This document shows positions 12,419 through 61,212 of a stretch of 64,000 bases of DNA, one piece after another. The stretch lies in NCBI GenBank assembly GCA_050183625.1, contig JBFXBD010000022.1, forward strand, positions 23,052 to 87,051, read 5' to 3'. Positions within the stretch are counted from its first letter, which is position 1. Each line of letters opens with the position of its first letter. Source of the DNA: Gammaproteobacteria bacterium. GTDB taxonomy: Bacteria; Pseudomonadota; Gammaproteobacteria; JADZEE01. The translations under genes and the position numbers were made by a program. The notes under the pieces are model-generated. The model was given only the letters and a program-made list of their open reading frames with translations, was not told the origin of the DNA and searched no databases.

Positions 12419-13249
12419 TCAACGGACTGCGCGACGCCTGAGAACCGGCAGCAGCAGGGCGGACAGCAGCATCGGCAGTGCACCCGGCAACGGCACCGGG
12501 GCGATGATTTCGCCGAACGTCCCGGAGGTGGAACCCGCCAGGGAGACGCCCGGCGGCAGGTTCAGGGTCAGCCGGGCGGTATTGTCCAGGCGGCCGGAGA
12601 TGACGTCGCCGGGCCGGGCATAGAACACGCTGAAGCCGAGGAAGGTGTCGAGGTAGACGTCCGTGTCACCCTCGACTTCGATGGTGACGCTGAGCACGTC
12701 GTCGATCGCGCCCGGCACGCTGTAGGTGTTCAGGTCGCTGCCCTGGATGCCGCCGACCGGACCAAAGAACATCGAGGCATTGACCCGCGGCAGCAGGGGA
12801 ATGCCGGGCGCGAAGTCCAACTCGCCGTCGATCGCCATCTCCAGCGTCACGAGCTGCTTGCCGGGCAATGCAGAGTGCAGTGTCAGCGTGTCGCGGATCT
12901 GGGCGCTCACCTGCAGGATGGCCAGCCCGTCGCCGACCAGATCGGTCGTGCCGGCGTTCTCCAGCATCCCGAGCGCCTTCAGGGTCTGGTTGCCGATGTC
13001 GGCCTGGGCGAAATACTCGAAGGTCGCGCCGCTGTCGGCGACCGTGACGACCGAGCGCGTGTATGGCGGCTCGGTCTCGGTCTGCGTGTCGGCGGACAGC
13101 GGCGGGCTCGGCCGCAGGCGGCCGTCGAGATCGACCACGCCAATCGCCTCGATGCCGGTGTCGTCGCGCAGCACCGCCTGGGCCTGCGTGGCAGCCAGGC
13201 CGGCAATTGTCGCGAGCAAGAGAACGCCCGAACGCGCGATGCCTTTCAT
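12419..13249 (-). CDS. Secreted protein with a C-terminal PEP-CTERM-type sorting tail
   Basis: There is an N-terminal signal peptide (MKGIARSGVLLLATIAGLAATQAQA). The C-terminus VPLPGALPMLLSALLLPVLRRRAVR has a P-x-P motif, a hydrophobic helix and an Arg cluster. Confidence 0.6.
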   Translation of the reverse strand: MKGIARSGVLLLATIAGLAATQAQAVLRDDTGIEAIGVVDLDGRLRPSPPLSADTQTETEPPYTRSVVTVADSGATFEYFAQADIGNQTLKALGMLENAGTTDLVGDGLAILQVSAQIRDTLTLHSALPGKQLVTLEMAIDGELDFAPGIPLLPRVNASMFFGPVGGIQGSDLNTYSVPGAIDDVLSVTIEVEGDTDVYLDTFLGFSVFYARPGDVISGRLDNTARLTLNLPPGVSLAGSTSGTFGEIIAPVPLPGALPMLLSALLLPVLRRRAVR

Positions 13250-13410
13250 TGGGTCCTCCGGGGATCACGTGGCGGCTGGATTCAGGGTAGGAGCCGATCG
13301 AAATCCGGAACAGTTCAGGATTTCCGGAATTCTTGCTTGTTCTTCCGCGCGCCTGCCTCCACGATCCCGGCGACGTATCCGGCTGCCGAGCCGGCATCGC
13401 CGGGCTGGCC

Positions 13411-14349: not shown

Positions 14350-15456
14350 TCATGGTGAACGGTGGGCGCCGTCGAACGAGGCCGCCTTGACCAGCGCGTA
14401 GACGTTGCCGCCCGGGGCGAGTCCGAGCGTGGCGGCGGCCTCGCGGGTGATGCGGGAGCGCAGGCGCGCGCCGCCGATGTCCACGAGCACGTCGGCGAAT
14501 GGCGAGCGCGGGTCGGCGTCGATCTGCAGCACCGTGCCGGGGAATACGTTGCGGATGCTCACCGGGCCGGGCGGTGCGAGTGCCAGCGCCACGTCGCGCG
14601 CGCGGATGCGCACCCGGACCTCGCCTCCCACCGGGACCTGCACCCGCGGGATCACCATGGCGCGGCCGTGCATGTCCAGGTGGGTGAGCAGGTATGACTC
14701 GTCCTGCCCCGTCACGCGCGCCGCGAGCACGACGCCGGCGTCGAAGCTGCCGGTGGCGTAGTCCAGGTTCATGCGTTCGAGCACGTCGCTGGCCGGCCCC
14801 TGCGCGAGCACGCTGCCCGCGGCGAGCATCACCACGTGGTCGGCCAGGCGCGCCACCTCGGTCACGTCGTGGCTGACGTAGAACACCGGCACCGGCATGT
14901 CCGCGCGTAGCGCGACCAGCAGCGCGAGCAGTTCCTCGCGCCCGGCCGCGTCGAGCGACGACAGCGGCTCGTCCATGAGCAGCACGGCCGGCCGTCCCAG
15001 CAGCGCGCGCGCCAGTGCGACGCGCTGGCGCTCGCCGCCGGACAGGCGCGCCGTGCCGCGTTCGAGCAGGTGGGCGATGCCGACCTGCGCGGCGATCCGC
15101 TCCAGTTCGCGCGCCGCGCCGCCGCCCTCGCCGAACGCGCGCCGCGTGGCATAGCGCAGGTTGCCGCGAACGCTCAGGTGCGGGAACAGGCTCGGCTCCT
15201 GGAACACATACCCCACGCCACGGCGGTGCGTGGGCAGGAAGGTTCCGGTTGCGTCGTCCTGCCAGGATTCCGCGCCGATGCGCACGTGCCCGGCCAGCCG
15301 CGCCAGCCCGGCGATGCAGCGCAGCAGCGTGGTCTTGCCGCTGCCGGACGGACCGAACAGCGCGGTGACGCCCGCCATCGGCGCGCTGAACCGGGCCCGC
15401 AGCGAGAAATCGCCCAGCCGGCCCGTGCAGGCGATGTCGATGCCGGTTCCGCTCAT
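14350..15456 (-). CDS. modC: Molybdate ABC transporter ATP-binding protein with C-terminal TOBE/Mop domain
   Basis: Walker [10 protein letters not shown], signature [15 protein letters not shown] and Walker [12 protein letters not shown] are present, followed by a C-terminal Mop domain. The ATG at 15454-15456 overlaps the modB stop (ATGA). The 588-aa track ORF is an over-extension. Confidence 0.85.
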
Positions 15457-16157
15457 GCACGCAGCCGCCGGGCGCGCCGCTCGATCAACATGACGGCCAG
15501 GATCACCAGGAACGAGAACGCCACCATGCCGCCCGCCAGCGCGTGCGTCGCAGCCCACTGGCCGGTCTCCACGTAGTCGTAGATGGCCACCGAAAGGACC
15601 TTCGTCTCGCCGGGGATGTTGCCGCCGATCATCAGTACGACGCCGAACTCGCCCACGGTGTGCGCGAAGCCCAGCACCGCGCCGGTGGCCAGGCCCGGCC
15701 GCGCGAGCGGCAGCGAAACGCTCCAGAACCGATCCCAGGGGCCGGCGCGCAGCGTCGCGGCGACTTCCAGCGGCCGCTCGCCGATCGCCTCGAAGGCATT
15801 GCGGATCGGTTGCACCACGAACGGCATCGAGTAGATCACCGAGCCGAACACCAGCCCTTCGAATGTGAACGCCAGCGTGCGCAGGCCCCACAGCGGGGCG
15901 ATTGCGCCGCCGGGGCCGCCCGGCCCCAGGAACAACAGCAGGTAGAAGCCCAGCACCGTGGGCGGCAGTACCAGCGGCAGGGCGACGATGGCGGCCGCGG
16001 CCTCGCGCCAGCGCCGGCGTGACCGCGCCAGCCACCAGGCCAGCGGCGTGGAGACGACGAGCAGCACGGCCGTGGAGATCGACGCCAGCTCCAGCGTGAG
16101 CCGGATCGGTTCCCACAGTTCCGAAGAAGCCGGCAGCGACGTCGACACCCGGATCAA
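15453..16157 (-). CDS. modB: Molybdate ABC transporter permease
   Basis: A ModB-like permease of 234 aa with an EAA-like loop. It overlaps modA and modC by 4 nt each. Confidence 0.85.
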
Positions 16158-16909
16158 TCGCCGGGGCCGTAGCCGTACTGGACTTTCACCGCGCGCGCCG
16201 CATCGCCGCGCAGGAACGCGAGAAAGGCGCGCGCGGCGGCGGTGTCACCGGCAGCGAGCAGCACGGCGTCCTGGGCGATCGGCGCGTGCAGGGTCTCCGG
16301 GACCACCCAGCGCGAACCGCGCGCGTGGCCGGCCACCTGCGACAGGGCCACGAACCCCAGTTCCGCATTGCCGGTCTCGATGAACTGGAAGGTCTGGGCG
16401 ATGTTCTGGCCCTGGACCAGCTTCGGTTCGATGGCCGCATGTACGCCGAGTGCCTTCATGGTTTCCACCGCGGCTGCGCCGTAGGGGGCCGCCGTCGGGC
16501 TGGCGATCGCAAGCCGCGTGAAGGCGGCCTCCCGCAGCGTCGTATCGCCCTTCACCCGCCCGGAGTCGGCACTGTAGAGCACGAGCCGCCCGGTGGCATA
16601 GGTGAACAGGGTGTCCTTCACGGCCAGTCCCGCCGCGACTGCGTCCGCCGGCCGCTGCCGGTCGGCGGAGAGGAACACCTGAAACGGCGCACCTTGTGTG
16701 ATCTGGGCGTACAACTGCCCCGTGGAACCGAAGCTGTAGAGAACCTTGTGGCCGCTGGCCTGTTCGAACTTCGCGGCGATCGCGTTGGCGGCCTCGGTGA
16801 AATTGGCCGCGACCGCGACCCGCACCTCGTCGGCGCGGGCACCCGCGGCGCAGGTGCCAATCACGACGAGGTTGAGCAGGTGGCCGAGGAAGGAACGATG
16901 GGCCCGCAT
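16154..16909 (-). CDS. modA: Molybdate-binding periplasmic protein
   Basis: A signal peptide and ModA-family motifs ([28 protein letters not shown]) are present. It is the first gene of the modABC operon. Confidence 0.8.
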
Positions 16910-16920
16910 GTAAACGCCCT

Positions 16921-16945
16921 CGATATATTTACATATACATAACGG
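16921..16945. promoter_or_regulatory. ModE-type operator (molybdate-responsive repressor binding site) in the modA / outer-membrane-channel divergent region
   Basis: cgatatatttacatatacataacgg follows the CG(A/T)TATAT-N-TACATAACG architecture of E. coli ModE boxes, recalled from memory. It is the only AT-rich island in this roughly 130-bp intergenic region. Confidence 0.55.
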
Positions 16946-17040
16946 AGCCTATCCAATTAGACTGCGACCCGCAAGGCGCGAGTCCGCACGCGCGGACCTG
17001 CGCCACGCGCCTTCCTTGCCTCACGACGGAGCCGGGATCC

Positions 17041-18420
17041 ATGTCGCGACCGATTCGATGGCCGTTCACCCTGTTGCTGCTGGCCGCCATCGCGGGACCG
17101 GTTCGCGCGGGCGAGGACCCCTGGCGCCTCGGCCAGGCGCTCGGCGTGCCGGCATGGCTGTCGCTCGGCGGCGAGTATCGCGTCCGCCTGGAGAACCTGG
17201 ACAACCAGTTCCGCGCCGGCCGGCGCGGCGGGGACCAGGTATTGGTCCATCGCACCAGCCTGCTGGCCCGGATCGATCTGCCTTCCGCGCGCATCGTCGC
17301 CGAGGCACTGGACGCACGTGCCTCGCTCGCCGATGCCGGCACGCCCCTGTCGACCGCCGACGTCAACCCGATCGACCTGCTGCAGGCGTACCTTGAATTG
17401 ACGCTGCGCGACGCCCCGGTGACGGGCGGCACGAGCGTCCTGCGGCTCGGACGGTTCACGATGGACATGGGCAGCCGCCGCCTCGTGGCGCGCAATCGCT
17501 ACCGAAACACCATCAATGCGTTCACGGGAGCGGACTGGACGATCACCGGCGCCAGCCAGACGCAGACGCGGCTTTTCTTCGTCCTGCCCGTGCAACGACT
17601 GGCCGGCACGAACCTGCTGGAAGCCGAGGCGCAGGCCGACGACCAGTCCGGCGACGTCCGGCTCTGGGGATTTCACCATGCGCGTGGGGGCCTGCCCGCG
17701 AACAGCCGGGGCGAGTTCTACGTGCTCGGGCTCGACGAACGCGACGACGACGCGCTGGCCACGCGCGACCGCCGCCTGTACACCGCCGGCCTGCGCCTGT
17801 ACCGCGACCCGGTGCCCGGCGCGTTCGATTTCCAGATCGAATCGGCACTGCAGTTCGGCGAGTCCAGGGCGAGCGCCAGCGCCGCGGATCGCCGCGACCT
17901 GGATCACCGCGCCCACTTTCAACACGTCGAGGTCGGGTACAGCTTCCAGCGCCCGTGGAAGCCGCGCCTGGTGGTCCAGTACGACTACGCCAGCGGCGAC
18001 GACTCGCCGCTCGACGACGAGAACAATCAGTTCGACACGCTGTTCGGCGCCCGCCGCTTCGACTTCGGCCCCACCGGCGGGTACGGCGCGTTCGCGCGCG
18101 CGAACATCAGCTCCCCGGGGCTGCGCCTGCTGCTGGCACCCTCGGCGCGCGTGAAGATCATGGCCGCGCTGCGCGGCTTCTGGCTGGCTTCGGATCGGGA
18201 CGCCTGGACCGGAGCCGGGGTGCGCGACGCCACCGGCAATTCGGGCAGCTACATTGGGACGCAGGCGGAAGCGGAGATCCGCTGGAGCATCATCCCCGGC
18301 AACCTGGATCTGGAAACCGGTATCGCGCACGTGTCCGGCGGTGGGCTCATGGAACGCCCGCCCGGCAATGGAAACGGCGATCCGACCTACGTCTTCCTCG
18401 CGGCGACCTTCACGTTCTGA
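17041..18420 (+). CDS. Alginate-export-family (AlgE-like) outer-membrane beta-barrel channel
   Basis: There is a signal peptide, an alternating beta-strand pattern and a C-terminal aromatic residue (ATFTF). It lies divergent from modA across the ModE box. Confidence 0.65.
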   Translation: MSRPIRWPFTLLLLAAIAGPVRAGEDPWRLGQALGVPAWLSLGGEYRVRLENLDNQFRAGRRGGDQVLVHRTSLLARIDLPSARIVAEALDARASLADAGTPLSTADVNPIDLLQAYLELTLRDAPVTGGTSVLRLGRFTMDMGSRRLVARNRYRNTINAFTGADWTITGASQTQTRLFFVLPVQRLAGTNLLEAEAQADDQSGDVRLWGFHHARGGLPANSRGEFYVLGLDERDDDALATRDRRLYTAGLRLYRDPVPGAFDFQIESALQFGESRASASAADRRDLDHRAHFQHVEVGYSFQRPWKPRLVVQYDYASGDDSPLDDENNQFDTLFGARRFDFGPTGGYGAFARANISSPGLRLLLAPSARVKIMAALRGFWLASDRDAWTGAGVRDATGNSGSYIGTQAEAEIRWSIIPGNLDLETGIAHVSGGGLMERPPGNGNGDPTYVFLAATFTF

Positions 18421-18526: not shown

Positions 18527-18985
18527 TCAACGAACGACGGTCACCGGGCAGTGCGCGTGCGCCAGTACCTGCAGGCTGACGCTGCCCAGCAGCAGGGCCT
18601 TGAACGCGGAATGCCCGCGGCTGCCCATGATGATCACGTCCGCACGGTGCTCGTCGGCGAAGCGGCAGATCTCCTCGGCCGGGTGGCCCCAGAGTTCCGC
18701 CGTCTCCAGCGTCACGCCAGGACCGACGCAGTCCCGAACCTTCGCGAAGACCGGCGCCGCCACCGTCCGCGAAGCGCGCCCTTCCATGCCCGCGGGCTTG
18801 TGCGGGCTGTCGCTGAGCGCCATGACCACGTTCTCGTAGAGATCCGAATGTGGATTGGCGTGAACGATGACCGCGTTGAGCCGCGAGCTGGTGGCGCGCG
18901 CCGCGCGCCCGGCGAATGCCGACGCCTTGATTGCGCCTTCGGAACCGTCCACCGCGAGGACAATCAGGCCGGAAGTCTCGACCAT
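18527..18985 (-). CDS. Universal stress protein (UspA family)
   Basis: LIVLAVDGSEGA and the G-x2-G-x9-G-S region VIIMGSRGHSAFKALLLGSV are present. An AGGAGGAG RBS lies upstream of the ATG at 18983-18985. The track ORF is over-extended at the N-terminus. Confidence 0.8.
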   Translation of the reverse strand: MVETSGLIVLAVDGSEGAIKASAFAGRAARATSSRLNAVIVHANPHSDLYENVVMALSDSPHKPAGMEGRASRTVAAPVFAKVRDCVGPGVTLETAELWGHPAEEICRFADEHRADVIIMGSRGHSAFKALLLGSVSLQVLAHAHCPVTVVR

Positions 18986-19276
18986 GGCGTATCTCCTCCT
19001 ACTCGGTTCCTGACCCAAGTGTAGGCGTTCCCCGCGCGTTTTCCATTCGCCGCCGGCCCCGGTTTCGCAGCTCATCCAGGCGCCCGTTTCATCGGGCCAG
19101 CTACCCATGGGCGCGCGGCCTGTCCAGGTGTTCGGTACCGGAGTACAGTGGGCCGCGCGCGCTGCTCGCGCGCGATTGAAGCGCGATTGAACGTTTACGC
19201 GCGGAGGTCATCGCCCACCTAGGGATTGTATTCGATCCGAAACCGCTGACTCAGGCATCAGTCGCAGGAGGTGCCC

Positions 19277-20884: not shown

Positions 20885-21262
20885 GGCATGCCACTGTTTC
20901 GCACGTCCGCGGGCAACCATTCGGGCCGTGCGTCGCAGGCACGAACCGCGGTGGCGGATCGATCCGCGGCGACGCCGCGCCGGTTTCCTGGCCTGGATCA
21001 AGTCCGCGGCGTTGCGGCGGCCGGCGCGTCGCTGATCCGCAATACCGGCCGCTGTTAGAATCCCGCAAGCTGTTTCATCCGCGCCGCGCTTGGGCTCATG
21101 CCGCACGCGCCTGCCTGAACGGCGGGCCGTTTTCGTTGTCCGATGCATCTTGTGCCGGTGTCGGGGGCATCGCCGAACAGTGCCGGGGGTCCCGTCGCGC
21201 GATCATCGCGCCGCCGGCAGCCGCGGCTTTTCGGTCGCGGTTCTATTTCGAAGGAGGAGTTC

Positions 21263-22189
21263 ATGCACGCAACCCGAGTGGCGTCCCTGGTGTCGGGCGC
21301 ATTGTTGATGCAGGCCGCCGCGCTGGCTGGCGCGGCGCAGGAGGATCGGCCCGTGACGCTGCGATTCGCCGGCGCGGTCAACGGCAGCGCGTTCGAATGC
21401 GGCAGGCAGTATTCCGGCGTCGGCAGCGGTGGTTCCACGATCGAACCGGGTGACTTCCGCTTCTTCGTCTCGGCCGTCGAATTGATCGGCCGGGACGGCA
21501 AGGCGGTGCCGGTCGCGCTGGACCAGGACGGCGTCTGGCAGTATCGGGACGTGGCGCTGGTCGATCTCGAAAACGGCGCCGGCGCGTGCGGCAACGGCAC
21601 CGCGGCGGTCCACGCCGAGGTCAGCGGCCGGGTTCCGCGCGGCGAGTACACCGGCGTGCGCTTCACCCTGGGCGTGCCCTTCGAGTCGAACCACGGCGAC
21701 CCCACCCTCGCGCCATCCCCGCTCAACCTCACCGCGATGTTCTGGAACTGGCAGGGCGGGTACAAGTTCCTGAAGGTCGACCTGAACAGTGCGGTTCAAT
21801 CCGCGCATGCCATGGCCGGCGCTCATGGCGCCGACGCGGGCGCGCGCCATGCCGGCGGTCACGACGCCGCCAGCGCCCCGGGCTTCGCCCTGCACCTGGG
21901 CAGCACCCAGTGCGCCGCCCGGTCGCAGACCGAGAGCCCCTCCGCGTGCCGGAATCCGAACCGCGTGACCGTGACGTTCGAGGGTTTCGATCCGGACCGC
22001 AATACGATCGTCGCCGACATCGGCGCGGTGCTGGCCGGTACCGATGTCGAGCGCAACGCTCCGGACACGTCGCCCGGCTGCATGAGCTTTCCGAAGGACG
22101 CCGATTGCACCGCGGTGATGAATGCCCTCGGGCTGCCCTACGACGGCATCGCACCGGCCGGCGCGCAGAAGTTCTTCAGCATGAAGTAA
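21263..22189 (+). CDS. MbnP-like periplasmic partner protein (metallo-mystery pair)
   Basis: AAGGAGGA precedes the ATG. There is a signal peptide, several Cys residues and a Trp-rich core (WNWQGGYKFLKVD). It lies immediately upstream of a diheme peroxidase, as in MbnP/MbnH pairs. Confidence 0.5.
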   Translation: MHATRVASLVSGALLMQAAALAGAAQEDRPVTLRFAGAVNGSAFECGRQYSGVGSGGSTIEPGDFRFFVSAVELIGRDGKAVPVALDQDGVWQYRDVALVDLENGAGACGNGTAAVHAEVSGRVPRGEYTGVRFTLGVPFESNHGDPTLAPSPLNLTAMFWNWQGGYKFLKVDLNSAVQSAHAMAGAHGADAGARHAGGHDAASAPGFALHLGSTQCAARSQTESPSACRNPNRVTVTFEGFDPDRNTIVADIGAVLAGTDVERNAPDTSPGCMSFPKDADCTAVMNALGLPYDGIAPAGAQKFFSMK

Positions 22190-22197
22190 GGGCGCTC

Positions 22198-23364
22198 ATG
22201 TCGCATCGTGTAGGCCGCGCCGCGGGCCGCGGGGCGCGGGGCGTGAGGGCCATGCTCGCCGGCGCCGCCATGGTGCTGGCGCCGGTGCTCGTCGCCGGTG
22301 CGCCCGGCTGGGATATTCCCGCCTGGGTTCCGCCGCCGCGCGAGCCCGCCGACAATCCGGCGACGCCCGCCAAGGTCGAACTCGGCCGGCACCTGTTCCA
22401 CGACAGGCGCCTGTCGGCGGATCAGTCGATGGCGTGCGCCACCTGCCACGAGCAGGCGCGGGCCTTCACCGACGGCAAGGCCGCCGCGACCGGTGTGACG
22501 GGCCAGACCGGCAGGCGCAACGCCATGCCGCTGGCGAACGTCGCCTACCTGCCTACGCTCACCTGGGGCAACCCGCAGATCGACTCCCTCGAAGCCCAGT
22601 CGCTGATCCCCCTGTTCGGCGAGCACCCGGTGGAGATGGGAATGGCGGGTAGGGAAGCGCTGCTGTTCGAGCGGCTGCGCGGCGAGCCGATCTACCGGGA
22701 GCTGTTCGCCGCGGCGTTCCCCGAGCAGGCGCGCGCCGGCCCGGCGCAACTGTATTCGCTGGCGACCGTCACTCGGGCGATTGCCGCCTTCGAGCGCACG
22801 CTGCTGTCCTTCGACTCGCCCTACGACCGCTACAAGTACGGCCGGGAGGAGGGTGCGCTCAACGCGGCCGCCCGGCGCGGCGAGGCGCTGTTCTTCGGTG
22901 AGAAGATGGAGTGCTACCACTGCCACGCCGGCCTGAACTTCACCGACAATCTCCAGCATGCCCGGCTGGCGTTTCCCGAGAAGGGCTTCCACAACACCGG
23001 CCTGTACGACACGGACGGCAGGGGCGCATATCCGGCCGGGCACGAGGGCATTGCGGAGTTCACCGGGCGCGAGGGCGACATGGGCAGGTTCCGCACGCCG
23101 AGCCTGCGCAACGTCGCGCTCACCGCGCCCTACATGCACGACGGATCGATCGACACCCTGGAGGAGGTGATCCGCGGCCACTACGCCGTAAAAGGGCGCG
23201 CGGCCTTCGGCGGGCAGGCGCCGAATCCGCTGCGCAGCCCGCTCGTCGCCGGGTTCCAGGTCAGCGATGCGGAGGTGCGCGATCTCGTCGAGTTCCTGAA
23301 GTCCCTGACCGACGAGCGCTTCGTCCGCAATCCAAAGTTTTCCGACCCCTGGCCGGCGCAGTGA
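22198..23364 (+). CDS. Diheme cytochrome c peroxidase family protein (MbnH/MauG-like)
   Basis: Two CxxCH motifs (CATCH and CYHCH) are present, with the CCP/MauG family conserved region PSLRNVALTAPYMHDGS. It starts 9 nt after the upstream gene. Confidence 0.8.
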   Translation: MSHRVGRAAGRGARGVRAMLAGAAMVLAPVLVAGAPGWDIPAWVPPPREPADNPATPAKVELGRHLFHDRRLSADQSMACATCHEQARAFTDGKAAATGVTGQTGRRNAMPLANVAYLPTLTWGNPQIDSLEAQSLIPLFGEHPVEMGMAGREALLFERLRGEPIYRELFAAAFPEQARAGPAQLYSLATVTRAIAAFERTLLSFDSPYDRYKYGREEGALNAAARRGEALFFGEKMECYHCHAGLNFTDNLQHARLAFPEKGFHNTGLYDTDGRGAYPAGHEGIAEFTGREGDMGRFRTPSLRNVALTAPYMHDGSIDTLEEVIRGHYAVKGRAAFGGQAPNPLRSPLVAGFQVSDAEVRDLVEFLKSLTDERFVRNPKFSDPWPAQ

Positions 23365-24503: not shown

Positions 24504-25520
24504 TCAGCCGAGCGCACGGCGCATCGGCTGGAAGCGGCGCCGGTATTGGGCCGGCGTGAGCCGAACCTCGCGCCGGAACAGGCGGCCGAAGAAGGCCGCG
24601 TCCTCATAGCCGACTTCCTGCGCGATCGCCTCCACCGGCGCGTCGGCGGCTTCGAGCATCTGCTTGGCCTCCTCGATGCGCAGGGTGTGCACGTAGTCCA
24701 GCGGCGTCATGCCGGTGGCCTGCCGGAAGCGGCGCTTGAACGTGCGCTCCGGCAGGCCGGATAGCTTCACCATCGCCGCGACCGGCGCCGGCGCCATGTA
24801 GTGCTCGGCGATCCAGGCCTGGCAGCGGGCAATCGCGGCGTCGTCCACCTGCCGCGTGCGCGCCAGGCGCGCGAAGGGCTGCTGGCCCGCCGCATGCCAG
24901 TCGATGAGGTTGATCCTGGCCACCTGCATGGCCGCATCCACGCCCGCCAGCCGCGCGATGAGGTACAGGGCCAGATCGAGCCATGTGGTGCCGCCGCCGG
25001 CCATGACCAGCCGGCCGCCTTCGCCGGCGACGACCAGTGCGCGCTGGCCCTGGACCTTCACGGCCGGATAGTCGCGCGCCAGGACATCGCACCACGCCCA
25101 GTGGGTGGTGGCTTCGCAGCCCTCCAGCAGGCCCGCCTCGGCGAGCAGCATCGCACCGGAGCAGGCGGTGGCGATCGTGGCGCCCGCCTCGAAGCGCCGC
25201 CGCAGCCACGCAATCTCGGCGTCGAAGCGCCCGGCAAGCGCAGTGCCCGGCGGCAGGTTCACTTCCGGCACGCAGATCACGTCGACTTCAGGGCAATCCT
25301 GCAGCGCGACCCCGGCGAAAACCGGCACCTCGTTCGTGACCATCACGCTGCCGGCGCTGCGCGCGACCAGCAGTGGCTCGATCAGCTGCGTGCCCGGCGA
25401 ACCCTCGACGATCACGCCCCAGTCGCGCCCCGCGGCGGCGAGCAGGTCGACCATGCCGAAGACCACCGATGCGGAGGTCTCCGGAAAAACCAGGATCGCG
25501 ACCTGCAAGGGGACGGTCAT
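24504..25520 (-). CDS. GlxA-family transcriptional regulator (DJ-1/PfpI domain plus AraC HTH)
   Basis: There is an N-terminal DJ-1-like domain (ILVFPETSASVVFGMVDLL...ATACSGAMLLAEAGLL) and a C-terminal AraC HTH. The start is at the internal ATG 25518-25520. Confidence 0.75.
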   Translation of the reverse strand: MTVPLQVAILVFPETSASVVFGMVDLLAAAGRDWGVIVEGSPGTQLIEPLLVARSAGSVMVTNEVPVFAGVALQDCPEVDVICVPEVNLPPGTALAGRFDAEIAWLRRRFEAGATIATACSGAMLLAEAGLLEGCEATTHWAWCDVLARDYPAVKVQGQRALVVAGEGGRLVMAGGGTTWLDLALYLIARLAGVDAAMQVARINLIDWHAAGQQPFARLARTRQVDDAAIARCQAWIAEHYMAPAPVAAMVKLSGLPERTFKRRFRQATGMTPLDYVHTLRIEEAKQMLEAADAPVEAIAQEVGYEDAAFFGRLFRREVRLTPAQYRRRFQPMRRALG

Positions 25521-25632
25521 GGCCGATTCGTCAGGTTCCTTGCCGATTTCACTGCGGGCGCTTCGGCCCGGCGGGCCTAATGTTGCGCCAACCGGAAGCC
25601 GGGGAAAACCCCGCCCGCAACAGGAGACCGCC

Positions 25633-26577
25633 ATGAAGAACCGACGCTCCGCCCTGCCGCAGCCCGCCGATCGCCCCTTCCTCACCGACAGCGGCCTGGA
25701 AACCACGCTCATCTTCCACGAAGGTTTCGAACTGCCGTACTTCGCCTCGTTCGTCCTGCTCGACAGCGCCGCGGGCCGGGAGCGGCTCGCGCGGTACTTC
25801 GCCGAGCACATCCGGATCGCCCTGGACGCGCGCACCGGGATCGTGCTGGAGACCCCGACCTGGCGGGCCAGCGCCGACTGGGGCGCCAGGCTCGGCTACG
25901 ACGCGGCCCAGCTCGCGGCGGTCAACCGGGCCGCCGTCGCCCAGATCGTCGAACTGCGCGCGGCGATGCAGGCGCCGGCCACGCCGATCCTGGTCAGCGG
26001 CAACCTCGGCCCGCGCGGCGACGGCTACCGCGCCGACCGCCGCATGCGCGTCGAAGAGGCCCGTGACTATCACGCGCCGCAGGTCGATACCTTCGCCGGG
26101 ACGCAGGCGGATCTGGTCTCGGTGTTCACGATGAATTACGTGGAGGAGGCGATTGGCGTCGCGCAGGCCGCGCGCGCGGCGGACATGCCGGTCGTCGTGT
26201 CCTTCACGGTCGAGACCGACGGCCGGCTTCCCAGCGGCCAGCCGCTCGCTGACGCCATCCGCGCGGCCGACGACGCCACCGGCGGCTACCCGGCGTACTA
26301 CATGCTCAACTGCGCCCATCCGAGCCATTTCAATCACATCTTCGACGGCGGCGACTGGCAGGCGCGGCTGCGCGGCGTGCGTGCCAATGCGTCCAGGCGC
26401 AGCCACGCCGAACTCGACGAGGCGACCGAACTGGACAGCGGCGATCTCGACGATCTCGCGCGCGGATTCCAGGCGCTCAACGACCACCTGCCGGCGCTGC
26501 GCGTCGTCGGCGGGTGTTGCGGCACGGATCGCCGGCACATCGAGGCGATCCGCGACAGCCTGCTGACGGCGGCGTGA
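25633..26577 (+). CDS. Homocysteine S-methyltransferase family protein
   Basis: It carries LTDSGLETTLIFHEGFELP and a C-terminal GGCCGT zinc-binding motif. CAGGAGA precedes the ATG. It lies divergent from the GlxA regulator. Confidence 0.75.
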   Translation: MKNRRSALPQPADRPFLTDSGLETTLIFHEGFELPYFASFVLLDSAAGRERLARYFAEHIRIALDARTGIVLETPTWRASADWGARLGYDAAQLAAVNRAAVAQIVELRAAMQAPATPILVSGNLGPRGDGYRADRRMRVEEARDYHAPQVDTFAGTQADLVSVFTMNYVEEAIGVAQAARAADMPVVVSFTVETDGRLPSGQPLADAIRAADDATGGYPAYYMLNCAHPSHFNHIFDGGDWQARLRGVRANASRRSHAELDEATELDSGDLDDLARGFQALNDHLPALRVVGGCCGTDRRHIEAIRDSLLTAA

Positions 26578-26777
26578 CTCGCGGCGTCATGCGTCACGCG
26601 GATCGCTCCGGAACGGTGCGGCGAAGGGCGCCGGCCGGGGCGGATGCAATCGCATCCGCCCCGGCCGCGCGTTGGGTGGCGCAGTGCCGGTATCGACTCG
26701 TTGGTCCGGCGTGTGGGTCGTCACGGCCGGCGCGAGTTTCAATGCCGGTTCTTCCAACGGCGCGCAGGGAGCAAACG

Positions 26778-27761
26778 ATGTCGATCAGGGACGATCACCG
26801 GATCCGGCGCACGCGCGCCGCCTGCGCAATCCTTGGTGCCGCGCTCGCAGCCGACGCCGGCGCTGCGGGCCTGCTCGATTCGCTGCGCAACCTCGCCACG
26901 CCTGCCGAGTACGTCGTGCGCGGCCGCCTGCAGACCCGGGACGGCCAATGGCTCACCTGCTTCGACGGCATCCAGGCCGGTTACCTGGGCCGATCCGACA
27001 TGGCGCGGCCCGGGGATGCGCGCGTGGAACCCGCCACCGGCCGCATGCAGTTGTCCACGGCAGCGATCCCGGCCGTGGTGATGACGCGCGAAGGCGTGGT
27101 CGCCCCCAACGACTGCGATGCACTCGCCAGCCGGCAGTTGCTGGTCCTCGCCCCGCCGCCCGCAACGGGGTTGCCCGCGGGCGACGGCCTCATTCGCGAC
27201 AAGTACGGCTGCGGGACGTGGACGGACGCTGAATTCCGGGCGGCCGACAAGGATGCCATCATGGCCTGCCAGGCGCGCGTGTTGACCGAGCGTGAATGGG
27301 CGCGGCAGCAGGCCGGGCAGGCGGCGGGCAGCCCCGGTTCCGCGGCGCCGCCCGATGCAGCGCGACAGGCGACGCTGGAGCAACTGCAGGCCGACACAGC
27401 GGCGAAGTTCGCTGCCATCCAGGCCGGCGCCGGCGCCCCCGCGGCCCCGGCGTCGGCGGCCCCGGCAGCCGAGGATCTCGCCTGGGACGGCGCGAAACTC
27501 TGCGGCCTCAAGCCCGCCTACATGATGAAGCTTCGGGACGAAGCGCTCGCCTTCGTGCGCCTGGATGGGGCCGCCGACCGGATCGTGATGTCCGAGTTCG
27601 CCGGCGGAGAGCGGCGCGAGATTGCGCTGGACGCAAACACCTTCGCCCAGCGTGCCTCGTTCAACGCCTCGGCCATCGGCCAGGGCGGCGACAACTGCGG
27701 CCGTGCGTTCTGGAACGCGGAGGCGTTCAAGGCCGCCTCGGCGGCGATGACCGCGCGTTGA
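26778..27761 (+). CDS. Hypothetical secreted protein
   Basis: There is an ORF with a signal-like N-terminus, an Ala/Pro-rich linker and conserved Cys pairs. No family is recognised. Confidence 0.45.
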   Translation: MSIRDDHRIRRTRAACAILGAALAADAGAAGLLDSLRNLATPAEYVVRGRLQTRDGQWLTCFDGIQAGYLGRSDMARPGDARVEPATGRMQLSTAAIPAVVMTREGVVAPNDCDALASRQLLVLAPPPATGLPAGDGLIRDKYGCGTWTDAEFRAADKDAIMACQARVLTEREWARQQAGQAAGSPGSAAPPDAARQATLEQLQADTAAKFAAIQAGAGAPAAPASAAPAAEDLAWDGAKLCGLKPAYMMKLRDEALAFVRLDGAADRIVMSEFAGGERREIALDANTFAQRASFNASAIGQGGDNCGRAFWNAEAFKAASAAMTAR

Positions 27762-27957: not shown

Positions 27958-29109
27958 ATGCAACGGCTGATTTTCTCCGCGGACTCGCACATCGTCGAAC
28001 CACCGCAAATGTGGCAGGAGCGGGTCGAACCGGCATATCGCGATCGCGCGCCCCGGATCGAGCGCGATCTGGGCGGTCGCAAGGGCGAGTACTACGTTTT
28101 CGATACGCTCAGGCCCATCGTGGTCACGCGATTCTTCGGCGCGGGCCATCTGCGCAATCACGACGACTGGGCGGCATTCGAGCCCGGTGGCTTTGAACGC
28201 GCGCCGAAGTCGATATTCGACCCGGGTGCGCGCCTGAAGGAGCAGGACGACGATGGCGTCGACGGCGAACTGCTGTTCCCGACCATGGGCATGGTGATGC
28301 TCGCGGCGAAGGACGAACTGCTCAAGGCGGCCTGTTTCCGAGCCGTGAATGGCTACCTCGCCGAGTACTGTCGTCAGGATCCCGATCGCCTCATCGGCGT
28401 AGGGGTCGTGAGCCTGCACGACACCGCCGCCGCCATCAAGGATCTGCAGGACGCGCGCGCCATGGGTCTGCGAGGCGTGCTGATCACCGGGTCGCCCGGC
28501 TCCGGTGGCTTCGGCGCCAGGGAACTCGATCCATTCTGGGCGGTGGCCCAGGATCTCGACATGCCGCTGACCATGCACGATCTCCAGACCCGCGGCCAGG
28601 TCGCCTTCACGATGCAGGAAGGTCGTGAGCGATTCGGGTTTTTCATGCTGCCGATGGAAGTGCAACTCACGCTCGCGGAGATGATCTTCAGCGGATTGTT
28701 CGATCGCTTTCCCAGGCTGAAGGTCGTGTCGGCCGAGAATGACATCGGCTGGCTGCCGCACTTCGTGCACCGAATGGATCACGCCTGTACCAAGATCCAG
28801 TCCGACGCCCGTGTACTGAAGCGGCTGCCGGGCCAGGTCGTGCGTGAAAACGTCTGGGCTTCCACGCAGTTCGAGAACGCCAACATCGTCAACTATGTCG
28901 CCAGGGCCATCGGAATCGATCGGGTGATGTGGGGGTCGGACTATCCGCACCCCGATTCGACGTTTCCCGGGACCCGGCGGTTCATTCTCGACACGTATGG
29001 CGAGCTCGACACGAACGACCAGGCATCGTTCCTCGGCGGCAACGTCACACGCCTGTACCAGGTCGACTTGGAAAGACTGCAAAGCCGGCGCGCCCCGCGC
29101 GCCCGGTAG
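27958..29109 (+). CDS. Amidohydrolase-2 family metal-dependent hydrolase (ACMSD/LigI-like)
   Basis: IFSADSHIVEP N-terminal motif and HPDS near the C-terminus (WGSDYPHPDS) are present, giving a TIM-barrel hydrolase pattern. Confidence 0.75.
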   Translation: MQRLIFSADSHIVEPPQMWQERVEPAYRDRAPRIERDLGGRKGEYYVFDTLRPIVVTRFFGAGHLRNHDDWAAFEPGGFERAPKSIFDPGARLKEQDDDGVDGELLFPTMGMVMLAAKDELLKAACFRAVNGYLAEYCRQDPDRLIGVGVVSLHDTAAAIKDLQDARAMGLRGVLITGSPGSGGFGARELDPFWAVAQDLDMPLTMHDLQTRGQVAFTMQEGRERFGFFMLPMEVQLTLAEMIFSGLFDRFPRLKVVSAENDIGWLPHFVHRMDHACTKIQSDARVLKRLPGQVVRENVWASTQFENANIVNYVARAIGIDRVMWGSDYPHPDSTFPGTRRFILDTYGELDTNDQASFLGGNVTRLYQVDLERLQSRRAPRAR

Positions 29110-54518: not shown

Positions 54519-54815
54519 ATGCGCGACACGCTGGTACTGGTTGCGACCATGCTGTCGCCGCTCGCGGCGGCAGCGGGGGGCACCGGTGATCGCGCGCCGC
54601 CGGGTGCTGAGTCCTGCTACGGCTGTCATCGCTCTTCGGGCGCGGACCCGGGGCCCGTGCCCTCGCTCGCGGGATTGTCCGCGGCGTCGATTGCCGAGGC
54701 GATGCGGGCGTTTCGCGCGGGCGAGCGCACACCGACCGTGATGGATCGCATTGCCAGGGGATACTCGGCAGAAGAAGTCGAGCGCCTCGCGACCTGGCTG
54801 GCATCGCAACGCTAG
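54519..54815 (+). CDS. Small monoheme c-type cytochrome (FccA/SoxE-like)
   Basis: It is 98 aa with a CYGCH heme motif after a signal-like N-terminus. It starts 8 nt after the iorB stop, and a flavoprotein gene lies 7 nt downstream. Confidence 0.65.
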   Translation: MRDTLVLVATMLSPLAAAAGGTGDRAPPGAESCYGCHRSSGADPGPVPSLAGLSAASIAEAMRAFRAGERTPTVMDRIARGYSAEEVERLATWLASQR

Positions 54816-54822
54816 CGGGACC

Positions 54823-56100
54823 GTGAACGCAGGAGCAACGCCCTTTTCACGCCGCGCCTTCCTGGCTGGCGCGGGAACGTTCGCGTCTCTGGCGATCTTA
54901 CGGCGCGCGCGTGCGGACCGAACCGCGCGGGTGGTCGTCGTGGGCGGAGGATTCGCTGGCGCCAGTGCCGCACGCCGCCTGGCGCTACGGGGCTTGCGGG
55001 TCCATCTCGTCGAAGAGGACGGCAACTACACCGCTTGCCCATTCAGCAACAGCGTCGTGGCCGGCGTGCGTGATCCCGAGCGGCAACTTTTCGGCTATCG
55101 GGCGGTCGAGAAAGCTGGCGTCAGCCGTGTCCGGCTCCGGGCGGTCGGAGTCGATGCCGATCGACGGCGCGTCACCCTGAGCGACGGTTCGACACTGGAC
55201 TACGACCGCCTGATCCTGGCTCCGGGGATCGAAGTACGCCTGGATGCGCTGCCCGGCTACGACGCGGCGGCCTCCCGGCGAATGCCGCACGCGTGGCAGG
55301 CGGGCGCGCAGACGCTGCTGTTGCGGCGCCAGCTCGAAGCGATGAACGACGGCGGCACCGTCGTCATCGTGGTGCCACCGAATCCGTATCGGTGCCCGCC
55401 GGGACCATACGAGCGGGCAAGCCTGATCGCGCATTACCTCGAGACGCGCAAGCCGCGCTCGAAGCTGATCGTGCTCGATGCGAAGGACACGTTTTCCAAG
55501 CAGCCGCTGTTCGTGGCGGCCTGGAAGGACCTGTATCCGGGGATCATCGAGTACGTGCCCCTGTCGGACGGTGGGAAGGTGATTTCCGTCGATGCCAAGT
55601 CGCTCAGCGTCGAGGCCGAGTTCGGACGGCACCGTGCTGATGTGGCGAACGTGATTGCGCCGCAACGCGCGGCGCGCATCGCCGATCAGGCCGGCGTGGC
55701 GGATCGAAGCGGTTGGTGTCCGATCGATCCGATTACGTTCGAGTCGCGGCTGATCCCGAAGATCCACGTGATCGGCGATGCGGCGATCGGCGGCGCAATG
55801 CCCAAGTCGGCGTTCGTCGCCAACCAGCAGGCGATTGCCTGCGCGGCCGCGGTCGCGGACCTGATTGCCGGCGTCGTGCCGGCCACGCCGAAGCTCGTGA
55901 ACACCTGCTACAGCCTGGTCGCGCCCGACTACGGCATATCGATTGCCGGCGTGTTTGCACCCAACGCGGACGGCGTGCTGGCCGAAGTGCCCGGTTCGGG
56001 GGGACTCAGCCCGATCGATGCGCCACGCGCGGTGCGCGCGCTGGAAGCGCGTTATGCCCAGGCGTGGTTCGATACGATCACGCGCGATGTCTTTGGTTGA
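54823..56100 (+). CDS. fccB: Flavocytochrome c sulfide dehydrogenase flavoprotein subunit (FccB/SoxF-like)
   Basis: SRRAFLAGAGTFAS is a TAT signal. VVVVGGGFAGASAARRLA is an FAD motif, with FccB-type C-terminal region. A GTG start at 54823 is assumed, because the longer ATG start would overlap the cytochrome gene. Confidence 0.7.
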   Translation: MNAGATPFSRRAFLAGAGTFASLAILRRARADRTARVVVVGGGFAGASAARRLALRGLRVHLVEEDGNYTACPFSNSVVAGVRDPERQLFGYRAVEKAGVSRVRLRAVGVDADRRRVTLSDGSTLDYDRLILAPGIEVRLDALPGYDAAASRRMPHAWQAGAQTLLLRRQLEAMNDGGTVVIVVPPNPYRCPPGPYERASLIAHYLETRKPRSKLIVLDAKDTFSKQPLFVAAWKDLYPGIIEYVPLSDGGKVISVDAKSLSVEAEFGRHRADVANVIAPQRAARIADQAGVADRSGWCPIDPITFESRLIPKIHVIGDAAIGGAMPKSAFVANQQAIACAAAVADLIAGVVPATPKLVNTCYSLVAPDYGISIAGVFAPNADGVLAEVPGSGGLSPIDAPRAVRALEARYAQAWFDTITRDVFG

Positions 56101-56555
56101 TGCGCGCCTGGATGCCGATGGCCATGCTCGTGCTCTCGACGGCGCAGGCCGAGGAAGGCGAACGCGCCGGTACGTCGCTCACCGGTCGTCCGGGTGATCC
56201 CGCCCGAGGCCGGGAGATCGTCGTCAGCCGTGAGCACGGCCTGTGCCTGCTCTGCCATTCCGGACCGTTTCCGCAGGAGCGCTTCCAGGGCGACCTGGCG
56301 ACGGACCTGAGCGGTGCGGGCACACGGTGGACCGCGAGCGAACTCCGCCTGCGACTGATGGACCCGCAATCGTTGGACCCCGCCTCGATCATGCCGGCGT
56401 ACTATCGAACCGAGGGACTGACCCGCGTCGGCGCGGGCTGGCGCGGGCGTACCGTTCTCAGCGCCGGGCAGATCGAAGACGTCGTCGCTTTCCTGATGAC
56501 GTTGCGCGATCCGAACGCGTCGGAACCGGGCGCGAACGGGGAGGGTGGGCGATGA
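56100..56555 (+). CDS. soxX: SoxX-type monoheme cytochrome c
   Basis: CLLCH is a heme motif, and LRLRLMDPQSLDPASIMPAYYRTEGLTRV matches the SoxX C-terminal signature. The ATG overlaps the fccB stop. Confidence 0.7.
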   Translation: MRAWMPMAMLVLSTAQAEEGERAGTSLTGRPGDPARGREIVVSREHGLCLLCHSGPFPQERFQGDLATDLSGAGTRWTASELRLRLMDPQSLDPASIMPAYYRTEGLTRVGAGWRGRTVLSAGQIEDVVAFLMTLRDPNASEPGANGEGGR

Positions 56556-57028
56556 AGCCCCGGACGTCCAGGCGCCGTCTGACGCGGCGGGAGCTGATTG
56601 CACGTGGGAACGGCGTGGCGCTCGCACTGCTGCTGAGCTCTGCGAAAGCCGATCCGGAGGGCCTCGCGGCGGCGATTGCCGAGTTCACCGGCGGGCGTGC
56701 GCCGAGTCCGCAGCGCGTGACACTCGACATCCCCCCGCTCGTCGAGAACGGTAATTCGGTACCCGCGACCGTCACGGTGGAAAGCCCGATGTCGCAGGCC
56801 GACTACGTACGCCGCATCGCCCTGTTCGCGCAGAAGAACCCACAACCCCTGATTGCCGTGTTCACGGTCGGTCCGCGGTCAGGCCGTGCGAAAGTGTCCA
56901 TCCGCTTTCGCCTGCGTGGCTCGCAGCAAGTGGTGGCAGTGGCGGAGCTCTCCGACGGCAGCTACTGTTCGGCGAGCGCCGAAGTGCTGGTCACGCTCGC
57001 CGCCTGCGTCGAGAGCGAACCGGCCTGA
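56552..57028 (+). CDS. SoxY-homologous sulfur-carrier protein with a non-canonical AACVE C-terminal arm
   Basis: There is a TAT-like N-terminus and a full SoxY core (EFTGG...VENGNSVP...SPMSQADYVRRIALFA...VVAVAELSDGS). It ends ...VLVTLAACVESEPA rather than ...VTIGGCGG. GGGGAGGG lies upstream, and the start overlaps the soxX stop. Confidence 0.75.
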   Translation: MKPRTSRRRLTRRELIARGNGVALALLLSSAKADPEGLAAAIAEFTGGRAPSPQRVTLDIPPLVENGNSVPATVTVESPMSQADYVRRIALFAQKNPQPLIAVFTVGPRSGRAKVSIRFRLRGSQQVVAVAELSDGSYCSASAEVLVTLAACVESEPA

Positions 57029-57045
57029 ATGCGGGGAACTCCGGG

Positions 57046-57366
57046 GTGAACCGCGCGTTGATCAATCTGCCGCGGACCGCCAGGCGCGGCGACATCGTCG
57101 AAATCCGGGTGCTCATCGCGCATCCGATGGAATCCGGATTTCGCGCGGGGGCCGATGGCGCACTGCTGCCGCGCAATATCATCACGCGTTTCACCTGCCG
57201 CTATCGGGGGGTCGAGGTGTTCAGCGCCGAGTTCTATCCCTCGGTCGCGGCCAATCCGTTCCTTTCGTTTCCGCTGATTGCCGAGGAAAGCGGCGAGCTG
57301 TTGTTCACGTGGACGGGCGACCACGGCTTCGAGCAGTCCGAGACGGCCACGTTGGCGGTCGAATGA
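57046..57366 (+). CDS. soxZ: SoxZ sulfur-carrier complex subunit
   Basis: RGDIVEIRVLIAHPMESGFR and FTWTGDHGFEQSETATLAVE are typical SoxZ motifs. It is 106 aa. Confidence 0.8.
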   Translation: MNRALINLPRTARRGDIVEIRVLIAHPMESGFRAGADGALLPRNIITRFTCRYRGVEVFSAEFYPSVAANPFLSFPLIAEESGELLFTWTGDHGFEQSETATLAVE

Positions 57367-57410
57367 GAGGTGGGGTTTTCGAGGGCGCGCCGATACGGCC
57401 TGGGCCGTCG

Positions 57411-58244
57411 ATGCGACGGATCCGAGTGTTCGTGGCGTCTGCCGAGGGCAGGAGATGCCTGATTGCGTCGTTGGTTCTGCTCGCCTCGATGCTCGGCTGC
57501 GTACGAGCGGTGACGCCCGCGAGCGGGAGCGCGAAGGCGATCCCCACCAGCGAACGTCGCTCGGGATTCGAGTTCATGCGGGCCGAGACCCAGTCGCTGC
57601 AGCGCGACGACACGGCCAACCCCGGCATGCTCTGGGTTGCCGACGGCGCGGCCCTGTTCTCTGCGCCGGCAGGGACGAGCAACCGTGCTTGCGCGGATTG
57701 CCACCCGGATCGCCTGGCCGGGGTCGCGGCGCGGTATCCCGCGTACGATCCCGGGAAGAAGGCGGCCATCGATCTCGCGCAACGCATCAATACCTGCCGC
57801 ACGCGGCAGCAACGGGCACGGCCGCTGGCACCGGAGAGCCGGGATCTGCTGGCGCTCAACGCCTTCGTCGCGCATCAGTCGCGCGGCCTGCCAATCCAGG
57901 ACCCGGCGCGCGATCCGCGCCTCGCTCGGGCGATCGTCAATGGGCGCACGCTCTACATGCAGCGGATCGGACAACTCAACCTGTCCTGTGCTCAATGTCA
58001 CGACCGGCACTGGGGCCGCAGGCTCGCCGGCAATGTCATTCCGCAGGCGCACCCGACCGGCTATCCGCTGTATCGCCTGGAGTGGCAGGGGCTGGGTTCG
58101 CTGCAGCGCCGCTTGCGCAACTGCATGACGGGCGTACGTGCCGAGCCCTACGACTACGGCTCGCAGGAAATGATCGATCTCGAAGTGTTCCTGGCGTCCC
58201 GCGCCGCCGGGCTTGCGATTGAAACACCCGCCGTGCGCCCATGA
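57411..58244 (+). CDS. soxA: SoxA diheme cytochrome c
   Basis: CADCH and CAQCH are heme motifs, and RLRNCMTGVRAEPYDYGSQEMIDLEVFLA matches the SoxA C-terminal signature. Confidence 0.8.
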   Translation: MRRIRVFVASAEGRRCLIASLVLLASMLGCVRAVTPASGSAKAIPTSERRSGFEFMRAETQSLQRDDTANPGMLWVADGAALFSAPAGTSNRACADCHPDRLAGVAARYPAYDPGKKAAIDLAQRINTCRTRQQRARPLAPESRDLLALNAFVAHQSRGLPIQDPARDPRLARAIVNGRTLYMQRIGQLNLSCAQCHDRHWGRRLAGNVIPQAHPTGYPLYRLEWQGLGSLQRRLRNCMTGVRAEPYDYGSQEMIDLEVFLASRAAGLAIETPAVRP

Positions 58245-60937: not shown

Positions 60938-61212
60938 CGAACCGCCCCTTCGTCGTCACGAGGCCGCACCCGGGCAGCCCCGGCCGATTATGGCCATGAA
61001 CGATCGTCGTCGCGAGCGCAGCGAAGCGACCCAAGCAGCCTTGATGCCACCGGCACCGCGTGGATTGCTTCGTCGCTTCGCTCCTCGCAATGACGGGGTG
61101 CGGTTCATGGATAGCGCAGCGAAGCAATCCATGCGGCGCCAATGACGGTAACGCCGCATGGATTGCCGCGGCCGCTACGCGGGCTTGCGATGACGGGGCC
61201 GGTTCATGGATG
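60938..61212. repeat. Composite palindromic REP/MITE-like element, copy 5 (longest, four or more units)
   Basis: It shares the ccggccgatt(a/g)tggccatgaacgatcgtcgtcgcgagcgcagcgaagcgaccca unit with copy 2 and the gcgtggattgcttcgtcgcttcgctcctcgcaatgacg unit with copies 1 and 4. Its last unit (ggttcatgg) supplies the stop codon of the adjacent gene. Confidence 0.7.

Follow-up and report, generated by a model that had tools for sequence, protein, structure and literature searches.

What do two adjacent genes in the genome of an uncultured gammaproteobacterium make, and is copper involved? The genes lie on the forward strand of contig JBFXBD010000022.1 (assembly GCA_050183625.1), within a stretch of 64,000 nucleotides that we analyzed as a whole and will call the window (G+C content of about 69%). 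An earlier note on this DNA read them as a "metallo-mystery pair" (TIGR04052 plus TIGR04039, or GenProp0940), that is, as the periplasmic protein MbnP and its di-heme partner MbnH. The family models, the WxW motif of the first protein, and the score of the second protein against an MbnH-specific model all favor this reading. We consider it very likely that the genes form a two-gene mbnP-mbnH operon of this known type, and that the operon makes a kynurenine-based copper protein. The system is already known, and the MbnP of the window is already named correctly at NCBI, where the identical protein, from a 93-kb contig, is described as [quoted passage not shown] (MAG stands for metagenome-assembled genome).

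When we searched with hidden Markov models for the MbnP family, as the earlier note had suggested, the upstream protein scored far above the curated cut-offs. It had 149.2 bits against PF20243 from Pfam (gathering cut-off 27) and, over nearly its full length, 284.3 bits against TIGR04052 ("MbnP_like_WxW") from NCBIfam (cut-off 140), which is an equivalog model. These were its only matches in Pfam and in NCBIfam. Its sole solved relative is PDB entry 7L6G (E = 1.3e-37, residues 27-299), which is the MbnP of Methylosinus trichosporium and was deposited as "metallo-mystery pair system four-Cys motif protein". An AlphaFold model of the window MbnP, built on 37 homologues (mean predicted local distance difference test (pLDDT) 78.9; predicted template modeling score (pTM) 0.77), matches six chains of 7L6G, with E = 3e-23 to 2.5e-21 and template modeling (TM) scores of 0.72-0.78. 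The next structure in the PDB matches at E = 0.07; the fold match is to 7L6G alone. The family is large: among 8000 candidates scored, at least 3174 proteins belong to it at E ≤ 1e-5.

The downstream protein scores 454.1 bits against TIGR04039 ("MbnH family di-heme enzyme", cut-off 362.85) and 169 bits against PF03150 (the CCP_MauG domain). Its score of 172 bits against the MauG model TIGR03791 is below the cut-off of 443.85. The best solved relative is 6E1C, the MbnH of M. trichosporium (E = 3.2e-107, residues 23-386), followed by canonical cytochrome c peroxidases (E of about 1e-35) and MauG (about 1e-27). The earlier note had pointed out the heme motifs CATCH and CYHCH, and direct translation places them at residues 80-84 and 239-243. 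To judge the conservation of MbnH residues (Table 1), we used an alignment of 80 sequences: the window protein, the chain from M. trichosporium OB3b, and 78 open reading frames (ORFs) of related loci. Trp123 aligns with the Trp of "FWDG" in the cytochrome c peroxidase 4AAO, and this is the Trp that has an inter-heme role in the superfamily of bacterial cytochrome c peroxidases (bCcP) and MauG (PMC11892367). Tyr329 is a putative MauG-type ligand of the E heme: ligation of this heme by His and Tyr is the MauG type, while the canonical peroxidases have His and Met (PMC11892367).

The layout of the genes also fits an operon. As the earlier note described, a 308-residue secreted protein is encoded just upstream of the di-heme gene, and both genes are on the + strand. 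The note gave the gap between them as 9 nt, but the spacer is 8 nt (GGGCGCTC): mbnH starts at 22198, and a frame that begins at 22199 is wrong. With just 8 nt between the stop codon of mbnP and the start codon of mbnH, co-transcription of the two genes is probable. Both genes show strong codon bias, with a G+C content at third codon positions (GC3) of 0.88 in mbnP and 0.90 in mbnH. By inspection, both proteins begin with Sec-type signal peptides; the one in MbnP spans about residues 1-24 or 1-25 and ends in ...ALAGA/AQ. (We considered the ATG at 21143 as an alternative start for mbnP, but the N-termini of the homologues give it no support.) The note also called the partner protein Trp-rich. 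The window MbnP has six Cys, yet it has only three Trp (W92, W161, and W163), so this term does not suit the window homologue.

We checked the conservation of the likely target Trp, as well as of the potential copper ligands, in two alignments. A1 has 29 sequences (the window MbnP, the 7L6G chain, and 27 homologues) and A2 has 37 sequences (the window MbnP and 36 homologues). The WxW motif, which holds the modified Trp that the earlier note's reading depends on, is invariant in both; in the window it is W161-N-W163, which aligns with the WNW of 7L6G. M159, H144, H211, and M274 are invariant in both alignments as well, and so are the six Cys (residues 46, 109, 217, 229, 273, and 282), including in 7L6G. 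In the characterized MbnP, the copper site consists of a His, a Met, a solvent molecule, and kynurenine 174 (PMC11951088). Trp174, from which this kynurenine derives, is within the conserved WxW motif, and the W174Y substitution reduced copper binding significantly (PMC11951088). The WNW of close Methylosinus precursors has its first Trp at position 175-176 and its second at 177-178. Because the numbering of the first Trp is near that of kynurenine 174, W161 is likelier than W163 to be the kynurenine target. W161 is two residues away from the invariant Met159, on the same strand.

How might the pair work? By analogy with the literature on M. trichosporium OB3b, and from the conservation of the residues described above, we infer the following steps. 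MbnP and MbnH would both be exported to the periplasm by way of their Sec-type signal peptides. MbnH would gain two c-type hemes and would react with H2O2 to form a bis-Fe(IV) state, as the Methylosinus enzyme does. In this state, MbnH would oxidize one Trp of the WxW motif of MbnP, most likely W161, to kynurenine. The kynurenine, along with Met159, either His144 or His211, and a water molecule, would make up a mononuclear copper site. Because it would contain such a site, MbnP would bind copper in the periplasm in order to acquire, buffer, or hand off the metal.

The genomic context of related pairs links the window pair to copper by association. We compared 85 loci by clustering all of their ORFs: the window, four loci from metagenomes, and 80 loci from species-representative genomes. 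The metagenomic loci encode the four closest homologues of MbnP (62-69% identity). The species-representative genomes are mostly Burkholderiales, and their MbnP proteins are 48-61% identical to that of the window. An ORF for MbnH adjoins MbnP in 83 of the 85 loci (the window included). The copper chaperone PCuAC (PF04314) is directly upstream of MbnP in 77 of the 85, and DUF2946, a CruR-type copper-sensing upstream ORF, is upstream in 54 (examples of such upstream genes are L047 8329-8871 and L024 8329-8727). The four closest relatives have ZnuABC, CopC, CopD, a BNR-like protein, and Redoxin upstream; downstream, they have PepSY_TM, or a TonB-dependent transporter (TBDT) with TonB, and then DsrE, a response regulator, and HiPIP. 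These are neighborhoods of metal homeostasis. The relatives' contexts match a published description of copper-repressed operons that are headed by CruR (DUF2946) and contain PCuAC, a TBDT, PepSY_TM, AhpC_TSA, and "MbnPH-like genes" (PMC9426467). It is by association with the relatives' PCuAC, DUF2946, CopC, and CopD that we link the window pair to copper.

The window itself has none of the usual copper partners that we searched for. The earlier note stated that neither the transporter MbnT nor methanobactin genes are adjacent to the pair, and this holds up. Pfam found no Plug or TonB_dep_Rec domain in the sizeable ORFs of the whole 64-kb window, and a TBDT profile that we built from the relatives had zero matches in the window. 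The sizeable ORFs within about 8 kb either fall into different families or have no family; no domain for methanobactin biosynthesis (MbnA, MbnB, or MbnC) was found in them, and no small ORF in the gap upstream of mbnP is convincing. Against the six-frame translation of the window, a DUF2946 profile (from 54 relatives) and a PCuAC profile (from 77 relatives) found nothing; their best hits had E = 0.04 and E = 0.18, respectively, and were outside the gap. Nor did single sequences of CopC, CopD, Redoxin, the BNR-like protein, PepSY_TM, DsrE, TonB, or TBDT from the relatives match anything in the six-frame translation.

How unusual is this? Among the 40 loci that are well flanked (at least 5 kb upstream and at least 6 kb downstream), 16 have a TBDT within 5 kb and 24 have none. 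PCuAC is missing from 8 of the 85 loci: the window, the four closest metagenomic relatives, one Comamonadaceae MAG, and two Thiothrix-type loci. So the absence of MbnT is common among the relatives and the absence of PCuAC is uncommon. The absence of every partner, as judged within 64 kb, is particular to the window among the 85 loci.

We also examined the 378-nt gap that precedes mbnP. Its G+C content is flat across the three codon positions (0.68/0.67/0.71), which implies that it is non-coding; the earlier note's description of a gap without a recognizable gene is correct. There is a weak terminator-like hairpin at 21109-21127. Searches of the gap found no regulatory RNA (no Rfam match at E ≤ 1), no promoter with a sigma-70 consensus, and nothing else beyond weak terminator-like hairpins and repeats at the level expected by chance. 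The relatives' profiles found no remnant of PCuAC or DUF2946 in the gap. As for a conserved operator, no 10-mer is common to the gap and the upstream regions of all four of the closest relatives; one 10-mer of the gap, made up of G and C only, recurs in three of these four regions with at most one mismatch. We considered that the gap might hide a small gene (an MbnA-like peptide, a DUF2946/CruR ORF, or a PCuAC remnant), but its ORFs lack coding bias and the relatives' profiles were negative. An ORF that starts with TTG and contains CILC (21090-21308) overlaps the start of mbnP and lacks both a signal peptide and a RAPP motif; we take it to be due to chance. The gap is presumably an ordinary promoter and 5' untranslated region.

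The window MbnP has a feature that varies across the family. The strands that carry WxW and His211 are separated, beside the predicted copper site, by a loop with many His, Met, Gly, and Ala residues. In the AlphaFold model, residues 179-203 have pLDDT below 50, so they are predicted to be disordered. A wider definition of the loop (residues 174-206) gives 33 residues in the window MbnP, with four His and one Met; the equivalent loop in the MbnP of OB3b has 16 residues, with no His and no Met. Both the length and the composition of the loop differ across the family: in the window's clade, 5-8 of its 31-40 residues are His or Met, and in most of the PCuAC-linked relatives it has about 22 residues, 0-2 of them His or Met. 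In most homologues from Burkholderiales, the loop is short and plain. His/Met-rich loops are typical of periplasmic copper proteins. The loop is consistent with a role in copper, without being a test of one.

We considered whether a His/Met-rich loop marks the loci that lack PCuAC. In the loci without PCuAC, the loops have a median of 5 His plus Met, versus 1 in the loci with it. But 11 of the PCuAC-linked loci have 4 or more, so we rejected a clean correlation between the loop and PCuAC. The association between the type of loop and the absence of PCuAC is also confounded by phylogeny. More speculatively, the MbnP of the window's clade might be a self-sufficient variant whose loop is a built-in arm that captures Cu(I) and feeds it to the kynurenine site. 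We consider this doubtful. If it were true, then a bare MbnPH pair would need no dedicated importer or chaperone to scavenge copper in the periplasm or to buffer it. We also noticed that the MbnP proteins of L074 and L078 (from Thiothrix or Thiotrichaceae MAGs) have a different insertion at the same position as the loop. This insertion has 52 residues, is Lys/Ala-rich, and looks helical (…KEKLATLEKIAAARAAAAKTGKPPAKKPAQAA). PCuAC is absent upstream in both of these loci.

Some points weigh against reading the window pair as a copper system. Even in the model organism, what MbnPH does physiologically has yet to be settled (PMC11951088). No copper-homeostasis gene, TBDT, or copper-responsive regulator site was found in the 64-kb window, and the nearest neighbors are unrelated genes (a universal stress protein, a porin, a ModAB-like transporter, two orphan secreted proteins, and an AraC-type regulator). 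The modified Trp and the ligand His remain candidates that were picked by alignment.

The alternative that fares best is that the pair carries out the same MbnH/MbnP kynurenine chemistry for some use other than copper, such as another metal, periplasmic redox, or peroxide sensing. The lack of a copper gene in the window would fit this idea, as would the location of the pair near ModA/ModB-like transporter genes, a porin, and a universal stress protein, and the biological function of MbnP has been called unresolved (PMC11951088). However, the absence of copper genes was judged from just 64 kb of the genome, and all of the candidate copper-site residues are invariant in A1 and A2. Also, the closest relatives of the pair are beside CopC and CopD, and most of the others are beside PCuAC; and the long His/Met-rich loop has a composition that is typical of periplasmic copper proteins. 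Overall, we think that a non-copper use is quite unlikely.

We also considered that the pair might be what is left of a larger copper operon, in a state of decay and without function or expression. This might explain why the partners found in the relatives (PCuAC, DUF2946, Redoxin, PepSY_TM, and TBDT) are all missing from the window, and why a featureless gap of 378 nt is found where the relatives have an upstream partner gene. But both ORFs are intact and have the strong codon bias described above, mbnP has a good ribosome-binding site, every conserved residue has been kept, and the gap shows no trace of a PCuAC or DUF2946 pseudogene. Decay of the pair is very improbable.

Least probable of all is that the second gene encodes a plain H2O2-detoxifying cytochrome c peroxidase and the first an unrelated secreted neighbor: although the second protein contains the general CCP_MauG domain, and its matches to canonical peroxidases reach E of about 1e-35, it passes the MbnH-specific model, it matches 6E1C at E = 3e-107, its conserved Tyr329 aligns with the Tyr of OB3b MbnH (and His-Tyr marks the MauG-type enzymes), and the genes are found together in 83 of 85 loci.

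In short, we rate these alternatives low because of the scores against the specific models, Tyr329, the near-universal pairing, the intact ORFs with biased codons, and the relatives' copper neighborhoods. We retain the view that the genes are an mbnP-mbnH operon for a kynurenine-based copper protein.

The neighbors listed in Table 1 were assigned by scanning the sizeable ORFs of the window against Pfam and NCBIfam. The secreted proteins of 537 and 291 residues, which flank the pair, were considered as conserved partners and rejected: they belong to no family and have no homologue in the 84 related loci. Their C-terminal tails (...VPLPPAALLLASGLGMLVRRRARRG and ...VSAPGSLALSVLAGVLFMRDRQ) look like PEP-CTERM/exosortase sorting signals, but their matches to PEP-CTERM-type models are all sub-threshold (E = 0.016-0.3). 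A cluster of SBP_bac_11 and other genes for an ATP-binding cassette (ABC) transporter, resembling the ModB/ModA-like genes of the window (15453-16948), is also found upstream of the pair in its closest relative (L002). Further away, at 54751-58244, are a gene for the flavoprotein of flavocytochrome c sulfide dehydrogenase (with FCSD domains) and then a gene for a SoxA/TsdA-type cytochrome c, which suggests that the host of this MAG has a sulfur-oxidizing lifestyle. Three other sizeable ORFs, at 26514-27761 (+), 12419-13264 (-), and 61204-63357 (-), have no convincing family match. The first two have a coding-like skew in GC3; the first is also rich in Ala and may have a signal or anchor sequence. 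The third has a weak coding signal: its G+C content at second codon positions is 0.65, and a long ORF overlaps it on the other strand.

Table 1. The mbnP-mbnH pair, its sequence features, and the neighboring genes, in window coordinates.
Feature	Position	Strand	Details and evidence
ModB/ModA-like ABC transporter genes	15453-16948	-	BPD_transp_1, SBP_bac_11 (Pfam/NCBIfam)
Outer-membrane porin, Alginate_exp family	17041-18420	+	Divergent from the ModB/ModA-like genes (Pfam/NCBIfam)
Universal stress protein	18527-19108	-	Pfam/NCBIfam
Secreted protein of 537 aa	19271-20884	+	No family (Pfam/NCBIfam)
Intergenic region before mbnP	20885-21262	.	378 nt
Ribosome-binding site of mbnP	21250-21257	+	GAAGGAGG; ends 5 nt before ATG 21263
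mbnP	21263-22189	+	ATG to TAA (stop 22187-22189), 308 aa; precursor of MbnP-family periplasmic copper-binding protein
His144 codon, candidate Cu ligand	21692-21694	+	Invariant in A1/A2; aligns with His of "NHS" in 7L6G
Met159-Phe-Trp161-Asn-Trp163 codons	21737-21751	+	WxW motif and adjoining invariant Met, a candidate Cu ligand (A1, A2)
Variable loop rich in His, Met, Gly, Ala	21797-21871	+	Residues 179-203, QSAHAMAGAHGADAGARHAGGHDAA; predicted disorder
His211 codon, candidate Cu ligand	21893-21895	+	HLGST motif; invariant in A1/A2; aligns with His of "VHVGST" in 7L6G
mbnH	22198-23364	+	ATG to TGA (stop 23362-23364), 388 aa; precursor of MbnH-family di-heme MauG-like enzyme
Heme c motif 1, C80-A-T-C-H84	22435-22449	+	Translation; C80, C83, H84 at least 97% conserved (80 sequences)
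Trp123 codon, inter-heme Trp of bCcP/MauG superfamily	22564-22566	+	At least 97% conserved (80 sequences)
Heme c motif 2, C239-Y-H-C-H243	22912-22926	+	Translation; C239, C242, H243 at least 97% conserved (80 sequences)
Tyr329 codon, putative axial Tyr ligand of E heme	23182-23184	+	At least 97% conserved (80 sequences); aligns with Tyr of OB3b MbnH
Secreted protein of 291 aa	23602-24477	+	No family (Pfam/NCBIfam)
AraC/DJ-1 regulator	24504-25835	-	Pfam/NCBIfam
Homocysteine S-methyltransferase	ends 26577	+	Pfam/NCBIfam
Amidohydrolase	27958-29109	+	Pfam/NCBIfam

What does this locus add? The earlier note overrated its novelty: the MbnP/MbnH pair was described in 2013 as conserved far outside of the methanobactin producers (PMC3621798), this exact protein is already named as MbnP by NCBI, and most of the well-flanked relatives lack an adjacent TBDT. 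Beyond correct annotation, the importance of the locus is slight, as it is one more member, from an uncultured gammaproteobacterium, of a family with thousands. The bare pair in the window does show that MbnP and MbnH can persist without their usual copper-operon partners, and a minimal pair with a His/Met-rich loop could suit biochemical studies of how MbnP acquires copper. The stand-alone context and the loop merit a remark in the annotation, not a follow-up program.

How does the window pair compare with known systems? MauG is in the same di-heme superfamily as MbnH, has the MauG-type Tyr, and carries out long-range oxidation of Trp in a partner protein (PMC11951088, PMC11892367). However, the window MbnH falls well short on the MauG model (172 bits; cut-off 443.85), and the product of MauG is tryptophan tryptophylquinone (TTQ) instead of kynurenine. 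Unlike MauG systems, the window has no genes for methylamine dehydrogenase.

MopE/CorA and MCA2590/CorB, from gammaproteobacterial methanotrophs, are similar in concept. These systems have a secreted or periplasmic copper protein with a Trp-derived kynurenine at the copper site, along with an adjoining homologue of di-heme peroxidases (PMC3621798, PMC11951088). But the folds differ, and MopE/CorA has no sequence similarity to MbnP; the window protein matches MbnP only. Also, the copper site of MopE/CorA includes two His, versus a His and a Met in MbnP (PMC11951088).

In species-representative genomes, the commonest relatives of the window pair are the homologous MbnP (50-61% identity) and MbnH in operons of the form DUF2946(CruR)-PCuAC-MbnP-MbnH(-TBDT/PepSY_TM), which are found in Burkholderiales and other bacteria (PMC9426467). 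The window differs in that it lacks the CruR upstream ORF, PCuAC, TBDT, and PepSY_TM; in particular, no CruR-type ORF (with CxxC and RAPP motifs) that would head the operon was found in the window. Given these differences, the copper-responsive post-transcriptional control of the CruR operons does not apply here.

Finally, the window pair can be compared with the MbnP and MbnH of M. trichosporium OB3b (7L6G and 6E1C). Unlike the OB3b genes, the window pair is outside of a methanobactin operon, with no MbnT, MbnI, or MbnR nearby. The hosts also differ: the window is from an uncultured gammaproteobacterium with genes for sulfide dehydrogenase and a SoxA/TsdA-type protein. The window MbnP and the 7L6G chain share only 36% identity; the loop of the window MbnP is 17 residues longer and is His/Met-rich, while the loop of OB3b's protein is not. 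Nevertheless, the two MbnP proteins have in common their fold (TM 0.72-0.78), the WxW motif, the invariant Met and His, and the set of Cys. Residues 23-386 of the window MbnH align with the OB3b enzyme and include the two CxxCH motifs, the inter-heme Trp, and the conserved Tyr. The order of the two genes and their tight pairing are the same in OB3b as in the window.

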